Shown: positions 2,885 through 39,517 of the stretch, piece after piece | Position numbering within the stretch: the stretch's first letter is position 1 | How the letters are laid out: every line of letters begins with the position of its first letter | Assembly: GCA_964500865.1 (NCBI GenBank) | Contig: CAZCQJ010000003.1 | Coordinates: forward strand, 33,812 to 73,328 | DNA length: 39,517 bases | Origin: an uncultured Bdellovibrionales bacterium | GTDB taxonomy: Bacteria; Patescibacteriota; Minisyncoccia; Moranbacterales; UBA1568 | Reading direction: 5' to 3' | Translations under genes and position numbers: made by a program | Notes under the pieces: model-generated | The model's input: the letters and a program-made list of their open reading frames with translations, nothing else | The model's database searches: none | What the model was told of the DNA's origin: nothing

Positions 2885-2903
2885 GGCCCTTTCGGTTTCT
2901 TTT
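2867..2903 (+). terminator. Rho-independent terminator of rplS
   Basis: ACCGAAA-c-GGCC / GGCC-c-TTTCGGT hairpin (2867-2896) with the stop codon in the loop, followed by TTCTTTT. Confidence 0.6.
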
Positions 2904-2954
2904 AACGCTTAGAAGAGCTATATTGCCTTCTCTCACGTTCTGTTGTAATTTTAG

Positions 2955-3148
2955 ATATATGCCCAGGTGGTGCAAAGTGACAGATAGCGGTAGACATGCC
3001 GCCTTGCGGTAGAGTATGCTGATTAAAGTCAGAGGAAAGATTAACAATATATGCCCAGGTGGTGCAAAAAACTCTTAGCGGTAGACACACGTGTCTCGCA
3101 ACGATATAATGAGATAACCTTGGTAGGTATAGGTGATTAACAATATAT
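2955..3148 (+). repeat. Two degenerate tandem copies (period 92 and 96 nt) of the tRNA-Leu(GAG) 5' part plus its upstream ATATAT leader
   Basis: GCCCAGGTGGTG occurs at 2961, 3053 and 3149. All three are preceded by (a)tatat and contain GGTAGACA. Only the third copy folds as a tRNA. Confidence 0.8.
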
Positions 3149-3232
3149 GCCCAGGTGGTGGAACTGGTAGACACGCAGCCTTGAGGTGGCTGTGCGGTAA
3201 AACGCGTGGAGGTTCAAGTCCTCTCTTGGGCA
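3149..3232 (+). tRNA. tRNA-Leu(GAG)
   Basis: Hand fold: acceptor GCCCAGG/CTTGGGC, anticodon stem CAGCC/GGCTG, loop TTGAGGT, long variable arm, T-arm GGAGG-TTCAAGT-CCTCT, discriminator A. Confidence 0.9.
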
Positions 3233-3294
3233 CAATGCAGAAAAGAAAAACTGTGGTATACTATTTTCTGCAACGGATAGATGATTAAAAATAT

Positions 3295-3368
3295 GCACGC
3301 TTAGCTCAGTTGGTTAGAGCACCTCGTTTACACCGAGGGGGTCCAAGGTTCGAGTCCTTGAGCGTGCA
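3295..3368 (+). tRNA. tRNA-Val(UAC)
   Basis: Acceptor GCACGCT/AGCGTGC, anticodon stem CCTCG/CGAGG, loop TTTACAC, T-loop TTCGAGT. Confidence 0.9.
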
Positions 3369-3418
3369 CAGATGTGTATAAGTGGGGTTTATACAAGAAT
3401 AGACACATCGGAGTGCCG

Positions 3419-3731
3419 GCCGAGGTAGCTCAGTGGTAGAGCAGAGGACTGAATTTCGGTCCCTCTCATAGTGATATGGGATGAGAAAAATCGGGTGAAT
3501 TCGGGGAAACCTACGTTCAGATATTCTGAATATGGCAATCTCGAGCCAACTCCTAAAGGGCAATATGGTTTTAGGAAAGGTGTAGAGACTAGTAAGTGAG
3601 TCCCAACAATACTCTTACAAAAGCGCCCGACTTCTTAGTAAAGAAGATGAGATAGTCCAATCCTTGGGGAAACTCAAGTAAGTGCGTAAAGGAAAATCCT
3701 TGTGTCGGCAGTTCGATCCTGCCCCTCGGCA
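3419..3731 (+). tRNA. tRNA-Phe(GAA) interrupted by a 241-nt group I intron in the anticodon loop (exons 3419-3450 and 3692-3731)
   Basis: The joined exons GCCGAGGTAGCTCAGTGGTAGAGCAGAGGACT + GAAAATCCTTGTGTCGGCAGTTCGATCCTGCCCCTCGGCA give a perfect cloverleaf close to E. coli tRNA-Phe: acceptor GCCGAGG/CCTCGGC, loop CTGAAAA. Confidence 0.9.
3451..3691 (+). ncRNA. Group I (IC3-like) self-splicing intron, no internal ORF
   Basis: The 5' exon ends in U, and GGACU pairs with the internal guide GGUCC (3458-3462), giving the U-G wobble of P1. The intron ends in G (3691). Core strings AAUUCGGGGAAACCUA, UAUGGCAAUCUCGAGCCAA and AAGGUGUAGAGACUAG match the Azoarcus/cyanobacterial tRNA-intron core as I recall it. 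Confidence 0.85.
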
Positions 3732-3777
3732 CAATAATGAACCCATGGTATACTGATAATATCATGGGTTTTGTTTT

Positions 3778-35000: not shown

Positions 35001-36014
35001 TTACAAGAGTTTTTGCTGATGATCCTTAGGTACTTCTTTGCCCACATGGGCGTAGCCCTCTGGCGTTACTACCCGGCCGCGCGGTGTTCGTGCTAAAAAG
35101 CCAAGTTGAATCAGGTAGGGTTCATACACTTCTTCGATGGTCGAGGCCTCTTCGCCAGTAATGGCGGCAAGTGCTTGGATGCCAACAGGCCCACCCTTGT
35201 ATTTTTCGATGAGGGTCGTAAGAATATGGCGGTCGGTTGGCTCGAGACCCAGGTAGTCGACTTCAAAAAGCTTGAGGGCTTCTTGCGTCAGGTCTTCGGT
35301 GATCACGTTATCGCCATGAATCTGAACGTAGTCACGGACACGTTTGAGGATGCGGTTTGCGATACGGGGTGTTTGGCGGCTCGCATGGGCCACAGCAGTA
35401 GCACCGGCCGAGTCGATAGGCACACCCAAGAGGTGCGACGATCGCGTAACGATTTTGCCGATTTCATCCGGGCTGTAGAATTCAAGTTTGTGCGTGGAGC
35501 CAAAACGGTTCCTTAGTGGCTGGCTGAGTGATCCAAGTTTGGTGGTAGCGCCAATCAGGGTAAAGCGTGGTAGGTCGAGCTGTATAGTCCTTGCAGCAGG
35601 GCCTTTACCAATAATGATGTCGAGCTTAAAGTCTTCCATGGCGGGGTAGAGCACCTCCTCGATATTCTTATTCAGGCGGTGGATTTCGTCGATAAACAGC
35701 ACATCACCTGGCTCAAGGTTGGTGAGGATCGAGCCTAAGTCACCGACTTTTTCGATGGCGGGGCCACTGGTAATGCGGATATTTACCCCCATTTCTTTGG
35801 CGATAATGTGTGCCAGGGTGGTTTTCCCAAGTCCGGCTGAGCCATAGAGCAGCACGTGGTCGATATTTTCGCCGCGTTTCTTGGCAGCCTCGATAAATAA
35901 ACCCAGATTGCGCTTGATTTTCTCTTGCCCAACGTATTCGTCAAAGTGTTTCGGACGAAGTGCGTTGTCGATTTGAATGTCTTCTGGTAATACTTGGTCG
36001 CTTTGGGTTATCAT
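35001..36014 (-). CDS. ruvB: Holliday junction branch-migration helicase RuvB
   Basis: [13 protein letters not shown], Walker [12 protein letters not shown], Walker [16 protein letters not shown] near the C-terminus. ATG at 36014. Confidence 0.96.
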
Positions 36015-36103
36015 AGGGGTCTTTTTTTGTAGTATAGCAGTTTTTTGGGGTGCTGACGAACCGTAGGGAAGAAACAATGGCTTACATAAGCCACGCTAAC
36101 CCC

Positions 36104-36132
36104 TTGACAAGATTCTTTTCCTATGCTAAGCT
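36104..36132 (+). promoter_or_regulatory. Candidate promoter TTGACA-17-TAAGCT pointing into the gene-free locus
   Basis: TTGACA at 36104-36109, 17-nt spacer, TAAGCT at 36127-36132. Orientation is opposite to both flanking operons. Confidence 0.4.
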
Positions 36133-36139
36133 ACTTAGT

Positions 36140-36800
36140 CGACTTGAGAAAGTTGGCAATTAAAAATCTTGGAGCGTCTCTTTCTGTGAGTATCTGTATA
36201 CTTTTAGAAAGAGGCGTTTCCATTTCGGTCGGACGCGTCTTCGAGCCCAGGTGACTCGGCGTGATTCCACAATCACGAAGCTTCTGTAGTGAGCCCCCTT
36301 AAGGCAAAACTACAGCACTGATTCCTTGTGGGAGAGGTCGGTGAAAAAAAGCGGGTAGGGCTACGCGGTGTGGTCTTACAAAGATACGAGTCTTTCCATG
36401 GTAGCTCCATAGGACTTGTAGAGGATAGCGTATCGAACCTGTTTAGGTATATTCGTGCGTGAGTGTTCTTGACCGGACAACGAAGGAACGCTGTAGTTTT
36501 GGTCGTAGGCATACGATTGGAACGCAGATGCTTTCTCCTCAGGGTGGTAGTTGGTAACGTTCCAAATGCCGCCCACCCTCATAGGATGCATATCCTATCT
36601 GATGAGTCCAAAAGGACGAAAGGGAAAATATTTCTTTTACATCTGTAGACAGTTTGGAGGGGCTCTATCTTTTCTCTTCAAATATGGGCAGCTGTTTCCA
36701 GACATGGGTAGGGGGGTTTCGGCTCTGCTATTCCTCGATTGGCTGGCTTTCCTGGGGTTCCTATATTCCGGGGTGTGTCTACAGCTTTAAGTGAGATAGC
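36140..36800 (+). ncRNA. Candidate roughly 660-nt structured RNA of unknown class containing the hammerhead
   Basis: No credible ORF. Many local hairpins: 36171-36220 GGAGCGTCTCTTTCT/AGAAAGAGGCGTTTCC; 36284-36315 CTGTAGT/ACTACAG; long-range CTGTAGAC 36643-36650 / GTCTACAG 36777-36784. Bounded by a promoter-like site and a terminator. Confidence 0.3.
36576..36624 (+). ncRNA. Hammerhead self-cleaving ribozyme, type III topology
   Basis: CCCUC^AUAGGAU-GCAU-AUCCUAU-CUGAUGA-GUCC-AAAA-GGAC-GAAA-GGG. All core nucleotides are present (C3 U4 G5 A6 N7 G8 A9, G12 A13 A14, A15.1-U16.1, C17). Closed stems I (7 bp) and II (4 bp), open stem III (4 bp). Predicted cleavage between 36580 and 36581. Confidence 0.8.
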
Positions 36801-36837
36801 AAAAACACGCTTTGTAAAAAGCGTGTTTTTTGTTTGT
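36801..36837. terminator. Bidirectional rho-independent terminator
   Basis: 13-bp perfect stem AAAAACACGCTTT-GTAA-AAAGCGTGTTTTT with T/A runs on both sides. Serves pilB (minus strand) and the plus-strand locus. Confidence 0.7.
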
Positions 36838-36854
36838 CTCTATAGAGTAACTGA

Positions 36855-38660
36855 CTACTTCGTGACTGACGTGGGTTCTTGCGGCGCCTCGGCCAGAATA
36901 TCTTGGTAAAAACTTTCTAAGGATTCTTCCATGCCTGTATGACGGACCACTTCTTCAAGGGTGGTAATGCCTTCGATACATTTAATAACGCCGTCTTCCA
37001 CTAAGCTCATCATGCCCTCTTGTTTAGCAAGGGCCCGAATGGCGGCTTCGCCGGGGTGTGTGGCGAGCAGCGCATTCATGGCCGTGGTAACCGAGAAGAC
37101 TTCGTAGACACCGATGCGGCCTTTGTAGCCAGTGAAGTGACACTGGGCGCAACCGACGGCGGCCGCCAGAGTTTCGACGGTAGTTGGTACGGTGTCGCGG
37201 ACGGCTGGTGAAATATTCTGGAGGATTTTTAAGAAAGCCTCTTTGGTTTTTTCGGCAGGGACGTAGGTGCGCTTGCAGGACGAGCACAGGGTACGTACCA
37301 AGCGCTGGGCGATAAAGATATTTACGGCGCTCCCGATGAGACTGGCGTCGATGCCGAGCTCCTGAAGACGAATGATAGAAGCGGGTGCATCGTTGGTGTG
37401 GAGGGTTGAGAAGACAAGGTGACCAGTGAGCGAGGCATTGAGGGCGATGTTGGCGGTCTCGCCATCACGGATTTCTCCGACGAGGATAACATCTGGGTCT
37501 TGGCGCACGATGGCGCGCAGCGCGTCAGCAAAGCTGTAGCCCACGGCACCCATGTTCATCGCGTTATTCATAGCTTCCATACCAGTGGTTGCCTGGTGGG
37601 CCGTCACCTGAGTCTGCACGATGCCAGCTAAGTGATATTCGATAGGGTCTTCAACCGTAATAATTTTGAGCGAAGGTGAATTAATGCTGTTGAGCAAACT
37701 GTAGAGCGTGGTGGTTTTTCCGCTTCCGGTTGGACCAGTGTTTAAGATAAGGCCGTTTGGTTTGGCGGCCTGCTTTTGAATTTCTTCGAGCACCTTTGGA
37801 CGCATACCAAGCTTACTAATAGATACGAAGATGTCGGTGTCTACTAAGAGTCGCATGTTAATGTTCTCGCCGTACTGGCCAGGAATAACGCTGACGCGAA
37901 TATCGATGCGCTTGCCGTCGACGGTCATTTCGAAGTGGCCATCTTGGGCGCGGTCACGCACATTGAGTTTCATTTTTGCGAGCAGCTTGATGCGCGACAA
38001 AAGCAGGCGGTACAGCACCGTCGGGAGCATGCCAATATCTTGGAGTTCGCCATCAACACGGAAGCGTAGGCGTGCTTCGTCCTCGCTGGTTTCGATATGG
38101 ATGTCGCTCGAATCAAACTGCATGGCACCCGCTAGAATAGTTTCCATGGCGTGAGTGGTCGCGGTGCGGTCGCCGGTGCGAGAAAGCTCGATTAGGGCAC
38201 CAAAATCTTTATCAAAATTTTTGAGATCTTCGCCAGAGAGCGTGACGCGCATACGGTCAAGTTGCTCGATGAAGGGGTGCTCGCGGTATATTTCTAGGGC
38301 GTACTGCAGGGAGTGCTCGGAGGCTACAAAGAACCGGAGTGAAGCGTTTTCTGCTTCGGTCTTCGCCTGGAGCTCAGCAATAACAGGGGCTGACGGCTGG
38401 TGCAGGGCGATGTAAATAGTATCGTTATCGCGGCGAAACGCAATAGCAGAAAGGCGCTCAGCATCTGCTTGCGGGAGCCAGAAGAGATCGTTGGTTTTGA
38501 GAGGGAAGAGTGTGAGGTCAATATAGGAAAGGCCAAGTTGTGCCGCCAGACGCTCTGCTTCGGCCTCGAGTGATTTTGCTTTGAGGTCCGCCAAAACAAC
38601 ATCGGCTTTTTTAGACGTAGTCGAGAGATTGGTTTGACGTGGAGGAACAATAGTAACCAT
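36855..38660 (-). CDS. PilB/GspE-family type IV pilus / T2SS assembly ATPase
   Basis: T2SSE N-domain, Walker A GPTGSGKTTT, Asp box, Walker B ILVGEIRD, His box, tetra-Cys (CSSC...CAQC). Confidence 0.9.
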   Translation of the reverse strand: MVTIVPPRQTNLSTTSKKADVVLADLKAKSLEAEAERLAAQLGLSYIDLTLFPLKTNDLFWLPQADAERLSAIAFRRDNDTIYIALHQPSAPVIAELQAKTEAENASLRFFVASEHSLQYALEIYREHPFIEQLDRMRVTLSGEDLKNFDKDFGALIELSRTGDRTATTHAMETILAGAMQFDSSDIHIETSEDEARLRFRVDGELQDIGMLPTVLYRLLLSRIKLLAKMKLNVRDRAQDGHFEMTVDGKRIDIRVSVIPGQYGENINMRLLVDTDIFVSISKLGMRPKVLEEIQKQAAKPNGLILNTGPTGSGKTTTLYSLLNSINSPSLKIITVEDPIEYHLAGIVQTQVTAHQATTGMEAMNNAMNMGAVGYSFADALRAIVRQDPDVILVGEIRDGETANIALNASLTGHLVFSTLHTNDAPASIIRLQELGIDASLIGSAVNIFIAQRLVRTLCSSCKRTYVPAEKTKEAFLKILQNISPAVRDTVPTTVETLAAAVGCAQCHFTGYKGRIGVYEVFSVTTAMNALLATHPGEAAIRALAKQEGMMSLVEDGVIKCIEGITTLEEVVRHTGMEESLESFYQDILAEAPQEPTSVTK

Positions 38661-38707
38661 ATGGTTCTATTGTAACGCATTTGCGTGTTTGATAAAAGCA
38701 AAGCGAA

Positions 38708-39517
38708 CTACTTTCGTGTGCTCGGATCCAGTAGCGCGAGAATCGTTTCTTCGGCTGCTTCGAGAGAATCTTTTTCTAAAGTGAAGGAAAGAAATTCACC
38801 TTGACGTTCAGCAGTAGCAAAGACGCCACCAGGAGTACGCGTTACTTCCTCGCTGGCACCACCCAAAAGTACCCGCACGAGCTGAGCGCTTTCTTGGTGT
38901 AGCAGCATATACATTTTCGCATCAGTGTAGTTTCCTTTGATTTTTTCGAGGACGAGCGGTAGGTCGCGATTTGAGGCCCTGGCCTGTACGAAGTCAGTAA
39001 TGCTGACGGTGCCCCAAATAAGAGCGAGTTTTTCGTTCCACTTAATGTTGGCCATAACCTTGCCCCACAGCTTAAGGAGGTGCAGTGGCTGTGTTTTGTA
39101 GAGCGCCTTAATAATCTTTTGCTGGTCTGCACCATGATCCATAAGGAGTGATGCCGTTCGGAAGGCCTTTGGTGACGTTGTTTGCTTCTGAAAGCTATTC
39201 GTGCCAGCAATGATGCCCGACAACAGGTATTCGTACACAGTAGCTGGGAGTTCTTTTTTGGTGTCTACTTCAAGAATTTCGCTGACGATTTCGCTGACGG
39301 TTGAGGCGGTGAGGTCGACTACGTTTACTTGCCCGTAGAGTTCGTTAGTACTGGCGTGATCGATATTAATGACCGGGACCTCGTAAAACACGTCCGGGTT
39401 ACTTTCGTAACAGTTCCCCAAGTGTTCTTTGTCGGCGGTGCCTAAAACGATAACCACGTCGTGGGTAAACTGGGCGGGCTGGAACGAAAAGTCACGCGGG
39501 TCGATCGAAGCTTTTTC
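38708..39517 (-). CDS. DHH-family-like protein with degenerate motif (DHA), 5' end outside the window
   Basis: The frame stays open to 39517 (..FTHDVVIVLGTADKEHLG). VINIDHASTNELYG aligns with the NrnA 'INIDHH.sN..fG' motif but carries Ala in place of the second His. Confidence 0.6.
   Translation of the reverse strand, partial: EKASIDPRDFSFQPAQFTHDVVIVLGTADKEHLGNCYESNPDVFYEVPVINIDHASTNELYGQVNVVDLTASTVSEIVSEILEVDTKKELPATVYEYLLSGIIAGTNSFQKQTTSPKAFRTASLLMDHGADQQKIIKALYKTQPLHLLKLWGKVMANIKWNEKLALIWGTVSITDFVQARASNRDLPLVLEKIKGNYTDAKMYMLLHQESAQLVRVLLGGASEEVTRTPGGVFATAERQGEFLSFTLEKDSLEAAEETILALLDPSTRK

Follow-up and report, generated by a model that had tools for sequence, protein, structure and literature searches.

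The spacer between ruvB and a pilB-type ATPase gene, both carried on the minus strand, in the genome of an uncultured bacterium of the candidate phyla radiation (CPR; deposited as a Bdellovibrionales bacterium, order Moranbacterales) is a composite of three parts and not one RNA of 660 nucleotides (nt). The parts are a conserved small RNA (sRNA) gene, an insert in the leader of that gene and a hammerhead ribozyme at the tip of the insert. The spacer lies in a DNA stretch of 39,517 nt, hereafter the window (assembly GCA_964500865.1, contig CAZCQJ010000003.1, positions 33,812 to 73,328 of the forward strand), and window coordinates are used throughout. On balance, the locus is best explained as one plus-strand unit in which a host sRNA gene harbors a foreign cassette, devoid of open reading frames (ORFs) and tipped by a hammerhead that would free the sRNA. 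Judged from its sequence, the ribozyme probably cuts the insert away from the sRNA. The genome holding the window (G000) is 760 kb in size, in 26 contigs, with a completeness of 93%; G015 to G191 designate relatives from the same CPR order.

The sRNA gene and its interrupted leader

When the spacer was compared with relatives by blastn, only query positions ~555 to 760 were matched, at 70-80% identity and always between ruvB and pilB. Based on these matches and on synteny, an sRNA core of 142 nt was placed at 36643-36784 on the plus strand. It is composed of a closing helix of 10 base pairs (bp) and three hairpins, with the conserved loops CUAUCUUUU and UCCUAU. An earlier reading of the window from its letters alone (the sequence-only reading) had described a long-range helix around about 130 nt; this helix is present, CTGTAGAC (36643-36650) pairing with GTCTACAG (36777-36784) and enclosing 126 nt. 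The closing helix of the ruvB-adjacent sRNA of Moranbacteria-like CPR bacteria, CUGUAGAC/GUCUACAG, is common to the window. The gene order is ruvB(-)/sRNA(+)/pilB(-), the sRNA being opposite in strand to both neighbours, and its assignment to the plus strand is based on G-U pairs and on the terminator.

The core alignment comprises 36 pairs, with 96.9% of the cells paired and compensatory changes at 12 pairs, a result reached by none of 500 shuffles; slid controls were only ~45% paired. A covariance model of the core (R2) detected a single copy in G000 (123.6 bits, the window being in the training set) and gave 142.4 bits with the sRNA of G068, which was outside the training set. E-values of R2, and of the hammerhead family model R1 described below, are circular for sequences used in training. 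Among genomes of the order that were at least 90% complete, R2 matched 142 of 151, representing 73 of 77 genera, nearly always as one copy. The sequence-only reading had proposed a comparison of homologous ruvB-pilB regions for conservation and covariation. In this comparison the core proved conserved and covarying, and the 5' part of ~457 nt was absent from most relatives.

The TTGACA-17-TAAGCT promoter, also pointed out previously, is found at 36104-36132 on the plus strand. It consists of TTGACA (36104-36109), a 17-nt spacer and an extended -10 element, TGcTAAGCT (TAAGCT at 36127-36132), with a predicted start at ~36139. The same strong promoter architecture, TTGAC-N14-16-TGnTAnnnT, was present at the equivalent position in all 21 related loci examined. 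The transcript would begin with a 5' leader hairpin (36139-36156, plus strand; UCGACUU-GAGA-AAGUUGG), a homologue of which directly follows the promoter in G068, G073, G035, G030 and G015. At the other end, the expected 13-bp terminator was recovered as an intrinsic terminator at 36801-36838 on the plus strand (hairpin 36801-36830, 4-nt loop, then a T run). Relatives have terminators at the equivalent position, and this one probably also ends pilB on the opposite strand. Promoter, 5' hairpin, core and terminator thus form a single-copy, order-wide, structured sRNA gene without a match in Rfam. In line with the sequence-only reading, no confident known family was found in the region: nothing in the spacer exceeded the Rfam thresholds, and the sole relevant match at E ≤ 10 was Hammerhead_3, sub-threshold at 17.6 bits.

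Among the relatives L008-L021, the first transcript bases (UUUCGCUU) in one clade of the genus can pair, as seen by eye, with a segment preceding the terminator (AAGCGAAA), and this pairing shows compensatory differences between species. The sequences suggest a terminal helix outside the 142-nt core model.

The predicted leader is 42-97 nt long in 19 relatives. In the window it measures 504 nt, owing to an insert of 457 nt at 36168-36624 that is ORF-less, highly structured and sense-oriented on the plus strand. The flanks to the left of 36168 and to the right of 36624 jointly rebuild a normal leader. Aligned to the empty site of G073, they overlap by the 5-nt AAAAT, which occurs as a direct repeat at 36163-36167 (left) and 36625-36629 (right).

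The hammerhead ribozyme and the insert body

The last 49 nt of the insert (36576-36624, plus strand) form a type III hammerhead. Cleavage is predicted between C36580 and A36581, and the 3' end of the ribozyme coincides with that of the insert. The ribozyme comprises stem III (CCCU/AGGG), a 7-bp stem I with loop GCAU, the CUGAUGA segment, stem II (GUCC-AAAA-GGAC) and GAAA. All of the following core positions are present: CUGAUGA at 36599-36605, GAAA at 36618-36621, the U36579-A36621 pair (15.1-16.1), C36580 as position 17, and G10.1-C11.1. Loops cap stems I and II, and stem III is left open. In an alignment of 12 family sequences, 97.9% of the cells were paired and 10 of 16 pairs were compensatory (stem III, 5 of 5 pairs; stem I, 5 of 7), a score that 0 of 500 shuffles reached. 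The full core and the family covariation bear out the embedded hammerhead, with its predicted cut at 36580/36581, that the sequence-only reading had announced. The minimum free energy (MFE) structure of the whole insert retains the hammerhead fold, and the family model R1 gave 73.6 bits with this sequence, which belongs to its training set.

No other hammerhead was found in G000. Of 319 genomes of the order, 12 contained the stem II pattern GUCC-NNNN-GGAC and none the reversed control pattern. In the G068 copy the core is identical and both variable stems (I and III) are changed by compensation. A strong hairpin, seen in the MFE fold at 36542-36574 on the plus strand, lies one base 5' of stem III; such a hairpin, 1-2 bases away, precedes nearly every member of the family, both in the order and in phage contigs of IMG/VR. 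The exact segment CUGAUGAGUCCAAAAGGACGAAA, accompanied by a stem I of 7 bp, a loop of the GNGU type and the abutting hairpin, was found in 36 IMG/VR viral contigs (L088-L123), some of which bear several copies. Elsewhere in the order, this hammerhead subtype stands between same-strand genes, after protein genes, which corresponds to the placement in prophage transcripts reported by Perreault et al. (PMC3088659). On the strength of core and covariation, the hammerhead is to be regarded as genuine, belonging to a covarying family that is common in the order and in phage contigs.

Some family members are variants with otherwise perfect stems. In G071 (L050, C43) the pair is swapped to U15.1-A16.1, and G182 (L058) and G191 (L059) have CCGAUGA (U4 to C); such changes may be tolerated or may mark dead copies. 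A conserved extension of ~35 nt 5' of the ribozyme, AAGGTTYGCGAAGTTATCCTYGGTCAAAACTTCGC, is shared by five loci, among them three of genus g52 and that of G191, which belongs to another family. In G131 (L056/L064, C2:38143-42499), two hammerheads of a minus-strand operon are located ~0.9 and 2.2 kb from the sRNA gene (38618-38759, plus strand). No paper joining hammerhead ribozymes with Patescibacteria was found in the literature searched.

The insert as a whole folds far better than chance. The segment 36168-36629 (462 nt) reaches -175.1 kcal/mol, versus -139.9 +/- 6.3 kcal/mol for shuffled sequences (z = -5.6; equalled by 0 of 100 shuffles). The G068 insert likewise gave z = -5.6, and the opposite strand of the window insert only z = -2.8. 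These values point to selection on the plus-strand RNA of the insert. Together with the junk-like character of the ORFs, this fold upholds the previous description of the region as non-coding and strongly structured. The body begins with a conserved long hairpin of ~23 bp (36170-36222, plus strand; CGUnUnUUUCUG...UAGAAAnAnGCG) whose counterpart is the first hairpin in the insert of G068; the alignment of the two has a score unmatched by 2000 shuffles and shows two compensatory pairs (C-G to A-U). This 5' hairpin motif was found only in G000 and G068 among the 319 genomes of the order, and its matches in viral contigs were due to chance. A small hairpin of the MFE fold (36283-36314, plus strand) has a stem, CUGUAG/CUACAG, that copies the outer 6 bp of the core closing helix. 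R2 gave it a non-significant 7.1 bits (E = 0.55), and the idea that the insert is a duplicated copy of the sRNA was rejected, this ~7-bit match on one small hairpin being the only one. The sRNA core invariably opens with UGUAG, and the insert bodies of G000 and G068 each contain this pentamer three times (p ~0.01-0.02 each, calculated post hoc); in the window the copies are located in the 36283-36314 hairpin, at 36417 and at 36492. It may be a protein-binding motif or a product of chance.

No homologue of the insert body was found in 60 relatives, 50 genus genomes, the 319 genomes of the order or phage records. A search for the hammerhead-plus-sRNA pattern in 185,579 species genomes returned G068 as the sole match, and none was found in JGI metagenome contigs; a looser version of the pattern gave four matches, attributable to chance. 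A consensus scan revealed no promoter-like site within the insert or between insert and core, so the sRNA would depend on read-through transcription.

In the proposed mechanism, transcription from the sRNA promoter would read through the cassette, after which the hammerhead would cleave between C36580 and A36581. The 5' product, of ~440 nt, would comprise the leader hairpin and the cassette body and would end in a stable terminal hairpin and a 2',3'-cyclic phosphate. The 3' product, of ~258 nt, would have a 5'-OH end, open with the ribozyme's stem I hairpin and retain the intact core and terminator. The latter size falls within the ~235-290 nt estimated for the sRNA of uninterrupted relatives from the lengths of leader, core and tail. 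The sequence-only reading had a ~660-nt transcript split into pieces of about 440 and 220 nt; the credible hammerhead and the predicted 5' piece of ~440 nt agree with it, and the 3' piece is put here at ~258 nt. The ribozyme would insulate an essential-looking sRNA from the insert, and such insulation would explain how the insert survives in a 760-kb genome.

Origin of the insert and rival explanations

The genus was searched with the 5' end of ruvB joined to an insert-less sRNA, and 33 other genomes had both on one contig. Compared with the window without its insert, the ruvB-sRNA spacing differed by -44 to +56 nt in 29 of these genomes, by +89 to +146 nt in three (two of which, G017 and G020, hold elements resembling miniature inverted-repeat transposable elements, MITEs, in the promoter region) and by +409 nt in G068. 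The insert is therefore restricted to G000 and G068, i.e. 2 of the 34 genus genomes counted with the window included. In G068 (contig CAYHND010000008.1) the leader is 482 nt and the insert 440 nt long. The two inserts have homologous ends, namely the 5' hairpin and the hammerhead, and interiors that cannot be aligned; both end, give or take ~3 nt, with the 3' strand of stem III.

Leaders are also short, and the insert is lacking, in outgroup families, which indicates that the uninterrupted leader is ancestral. In the RuvB tree, G068 is sister to G073 (support 100/98) with very short branches. The site is empty in G073, whose flanks, including the sRNA, are near-identical to those of G068 and whose leader is collinear with those of G030, G015 and G035. 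The difference between G068 and G073 is therefore a recent presence/absence difference in which the empty state looks ancestral. The window is placed on a long, unresolved branch of the same tree. On the empty leader, the insertion points map to position ~36 for the window and ~26-30 for G068, which is close but possibly not identical; the homologous, strongly diverged G068 copy thus sits no more than ~10 nt from the window position. From these data we infer that at least two acquisitions of related cassettes in one small target are favoured over a single ancient gain followed by precise losses. The likeliest identity of the cassette is a non-autonomous element that either moved recently or was recombined in, and the AAAAT repeat may represent a target-site duplication. 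A bolder proposal, possible although rather doubtful, is that the cassette belongs to an undescribed type of protein-less mobile insertion of CPR bacteria, with a 5' hairpin and a 3' hammerhead, lying in sense orientation in the leader of a single conserved sRNA gene, taken to be highly expressed, and neutralising itself by cleavage; the two acquisitions would then reflect a target preference and not common ancestry.

Several observations weigh against a foreign, self-cleaving cassette. With the Rfam hammerhead model RF00008, the ribozyme scored 17.6 bits against a gathering threshold of 48.5 (E = 1.2 on 1 kb). The Rfam alignment missed the short stems I and III, and the low score is explained by these short stems and not by a defective core. 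Stem III has only 4 pairs, and loop 1 is GCAU, versus GUGU/GAGU in relatives. After the predicted cut, the sRNA would still carry 62 nt of ribozyme and spacer sequence. Regarding the origin, a clade of the window and G068 costs 10-16 log-likelihood units and is not firmly excluded (approximately unbiased test, p = 0.03 with 20 rows and 0.12 with 29 rows), and the insertion points come from short, low-complexity, A/T-rich alignments. The AAAAT repeat is itself A/T-rich and possibly fortuitous. No Y1 transposase (PF01797) was found in G000, G068 or G073 and no reverse transcriptase (RVT_1) in G000 or G068; inspection of the insert ends revealed no terminal inverted repeats, and there is one copy per genome. 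Finally, two members of the insert family are known, which puts covariation in the body beyond reach.

Among the alternatives, the insert body could be a functional lineage-specific non-coding RNA (ncRNA), a second RNA gene in a dicistronic ncRNA operon whose two mature products are separated by the hammerhead. The similar lengths of the inserts (457 and 440 nt), their exceptional folding on the plus strand only, the maintenance of the 5' hairpin through compensatory changes and the protective hairpin in which the upstream product would terminate are all consistent with it; moreover, a genome of 760 kb would not be expected to keep 450 nt of useless DNA. However, the interiors of the two species cannot be aligned, no related body occurs elsewhere in the order, and the absence of the insert from 32 of the 34 genus genomes, the sister of G068 included, makes it dispensable. 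The strong folding, for its part, was perhaps selected to avoid misfolding with the sRNA or the ribozyme. This explanation is consequently considered unlikely. Far less probable still, indeed hardly tenable, is the view that the whole 660-nt transcript is one novel large ncRNA with the hammerhead as an internal maturation device, as the sequence-only reading had suggested. A single promoter and a single terminator do bracket the region, and structure is strong throughout, but the 3' part stands alone with the same promoter and terminator in the 142 of 151 order genomes matched by R2, nearly all of these genomes lack the 5' 457 nt, and comparison with an empty site reveals sharp junctions. This distribution contradicts a unitary RNA: the 3' third is an independent sRNA gene and the middle ~457 nt are an insertion.

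The insert might also be an inert relic, such as the scar of a phage or island or a decayed small-gene cassette together with the hammerhead flanking it, inherited vertically from the subclade ancestor and precisely lost in several lineages, with a ribozyme that may no longer matter. Integration into stable-RNA genes is a classic phenomenon, phage contigs frequently bear this hammerhead subtype, the other hammerheads of the order follow protein genes, and the spacer tolerates junk, as illustrated by the MITE-like insertions in G017, G020 and perhaps G019. Nevertheless, ends and fold are undecayed although the interior has diverged beyond alignment, and the inserts have no ORF remnant in common. 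The G073 empty site aligns collinearly with outgroups and does not resemble the product of a simple deletion in G068, and repeated precise loss is less likely than gain. Such a relic therefore appears distinctly improbable. The mobile or phage-derived remnant offered as an alternative by the sequence-only reading comes closer to the facts as regards the insert, but the qualifier "decayed" does not fit, as the ends are conserved with compensatory changes and both inserts fold beyond chance. It is very improbable, lastly, that the hammerhead is a non-functional look-alike and that the transcript stays uncut or is processed by host RNases only. The sub-threshold Rfam score and the short stem III would agree with it, and the swapped 15.1-16.1 pair of G071 and the CCGAUGA of two members indicate that copies need not all be active. 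However, every invariant core position, A15.1-U16.1 and C17 are present, the core was kept in G068 while both variable stems covaried, and the reversed control pattern did not occur once in 319 genomes. An information-rich motif situated exactly at the insert end in two species is very unlikely to arise by chance. A host sRNA gene carrying a foreign cassette tipped by a hammerhead thus remains the explanation that we prefer.

Locus context and comparison with known systems

In the annotation of the spacer, homology to RuvB is seen from about residue 22 onwards in the long ORF, which places the ruvB start at the ATG at 36014 and gives a real spacer of 36015-36854 (840 nt). A ruvB promoter is predicted by consensus scan at 36031-36059 on the minus strand (TCGTCA, 17 nt, TGcTATACT), divergent from the sRNA promoter. 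The ORFs of the spacer, of 30-79 amino acids, are junk-like. No conserved ORF was evident when the insert was compared with that of G068 by tblastx, which returned the hammerhead segment and two short stretches of 21-38% identity. The sequence-only reading had called this region the longest ORF-free stretch; it is indeed ORF-less, but ranks second in the window when ORFs of at least 110 amino acids are considered. The longest such stretch, 2885-3777 (893 nt), holds tRNAs and a group I intron, the latter (3441-3679; 75.3 bits) adjoining the tRNA gene cluster. The MITE-like insertions of G017 (L017) and G020 (L011), and perhaps G019, are ~150 nt long with terminal inverted repeats (CCCCGGTnACAAAT...). 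In G017 and G020 they are located upstream of the sRNA promoter, a duplicated TTGAC recreating the -35 box. Small elements seem to land in the ruvB-sRNA spacer repeatedly.

A series of known RNAs and elements was considered and rejected, in agreement with the sequence-only reading, which had found no RNase P RNA, transfer-messenger RNA (tmRNA), signal recognition particle (SRP) RNA or group II features; the Rfam and profile searches for these were negative. The region matched no model of the RNase P RNA clan, which is marked by CR-I (GAGGAAAGUCCGG) and CR-V (ACAGAAUCCGGCUUA) forming P4, at E ≤ 10. The tmRNA is located elsewhere (C10:1231-1627). SRP RNA models gave no match (RF00169 in 0 of 41 genomes of the order; RF01854 in G000). 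There was no match to 6S RNA (RF00013) either, and the core fold is a multi-hairpin junction, not a long rod with a central bubble. Group I and II introns gave no match at E ≤ 10, although the same search detected the tRNA group I intron at 3441-3679. By eye, a single P7-like pairing was noted with only 84 nt before it, too little for P1-P6; the U before the insert and the G at its end fit group I boundaries, so that the exclusion of group I is not complete. An IS200/IS605 palindrome element was rejected since PF01797 is lacking in G000, G068 and G073, the left flanks differ (AAAAT vs GTTGAA) and there is one copy per genome. A MITE was discarded in the absence of terminal inverted repeats on inspection and given the single copy, the 5-nt AAAAT repeat being perhaps a target-site duplication, perhaps due to chance. 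A retrozyme was dismissed on account of the one hammerhead, on the plus strand only, and the lack of RVT_1 in G000 and G068. Readings as an integron attC-like, an IS91-like or a terminal-inverted-repeat element were dropped by eye, the flank motifs being inconsistent.

These searches yielded two observations on the genome itself. The RNase P RNA of 37 among 41 relatives is canonical; in G000 none was found, either with RF00010 or with a genus nhmmer profile made from 20 canonical relatives. The gene adjoining RNase P RNA in five relatives matches the last bases of the G000 contig C21 (end 10383). This flanking gene runs off C21, and the RNase P RNA gene thus most likely lies in an assembly gap and was not lost. 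As to the SRP pathway, none of the 41 genomes of the order contained the M domain of Ffh (PF02978), and no SRP54-type GTPase was found in G000, whose six frames lack the GxxGxGKTT...DTAGR motif; five relatives with 100% completeness gave only sub-threshold P-loop matches for SRP54. The whole order appears to lack the near-universal SRP/FtsY targeting pathway. No paper joining Moranbacteria with SRP was found in the literature searched.

Bacterial hammerheads have been described as punctuation marks separating the genes of phage-like operons, and it is still debated what advantage they bring. In the present locus, the layout itself shows what the advantage would be: the sRNA would be made only by read-through of the 457-nt insert, and the ribozyme would restore its normal size. 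The locus would thus provide a simple and testable natural case of a ribozyme insulating an ncRNA, and this type of cassette may represent a new route by which RNA cassettes, selfish or accessory, are maintained in genomes of extreme compactness. G068 and G073 provide a natural pair of filled and empty sites for studying cassette movement. If the proposal of a novel mobile insertion holds true, the cassette would be the cleaving counterpart of self-splicing introns.

Among the closest known systems is the uninterrupted ruvB-adjacent sRNA of Moranbacteria-like CPR bacteria, which is the same gene with the same synteny, promoter and terminator, the leader being interrupted in G000 and G068. Type III hammerheads of bacteria and prophages flank genes and cut long transcripts (Perreault et al. 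2011, PMC3088659). They share with the present ribozyme the catalytic core, the three-helix fold with an open stem III and a position within a long transcript, where cleavage would separate functional units; the GUCC-AAAA-GGAC stem II and the abutting upstream hairpin recur in the 36 phage contigs. In contrast, the window hammerhead forms the 3' extremity of an ORF-less insert within the leader of a conserved ncRNA gene instead of lying between protein genes, and it is the sole hammerhead of its genome. Retrozymes are eukaryotic non-autonomous retroelements with two hammerhead repeats, which are multicopy and spread by way of circular RNA with the help of a reverse transcriptase (Cervera et al. 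2016, PMC4918200). Like them, the cassette is protein-less, hammerhead-bearing, highly structured and a few hundred nt long, with short flanking direct repeats; unlike them, it has one hammerhead and one copy, and no reverse transcriptase was found in G000 or G068.

Other parallels come from cleaved, spliced and engineered RNAs. IStrons are group I introns fused to IS605-type transposons. These and other self-splicing mobile introns resemble the cassette in being sense-oriented selfish inserts whose own ribozyme limits the damage to the host transcript, but the present insert would be cleaved without ligation, and no transposase, homing endonuclease or group I/II features were found. The intervening sequences of bacterial rRNA are excised by RNase III without re-ligation, and CPR rRNA genes hold ORF-less insertions. 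As is proposed for the cassette, a structured extra RNA within a stable-RNA gene is co-transcribed, cleaved and not spliced, and patchily distributed among close relatives. Removal here is predicted to be autocatalytic, by the hammerhead; the insert lies in a leader, outside the mature RNA, and the cut is one-sided. Finally, in synthetic ribozyme-guide RNA-ribozyme designs, an upstream hammerhead frees a small RNA from a longer transcript. The arrangement in G000 similarly places a hammerhead upstream of a small functional RNA, but it is natural, and its type III ribozyme would be left on the released 5' end.

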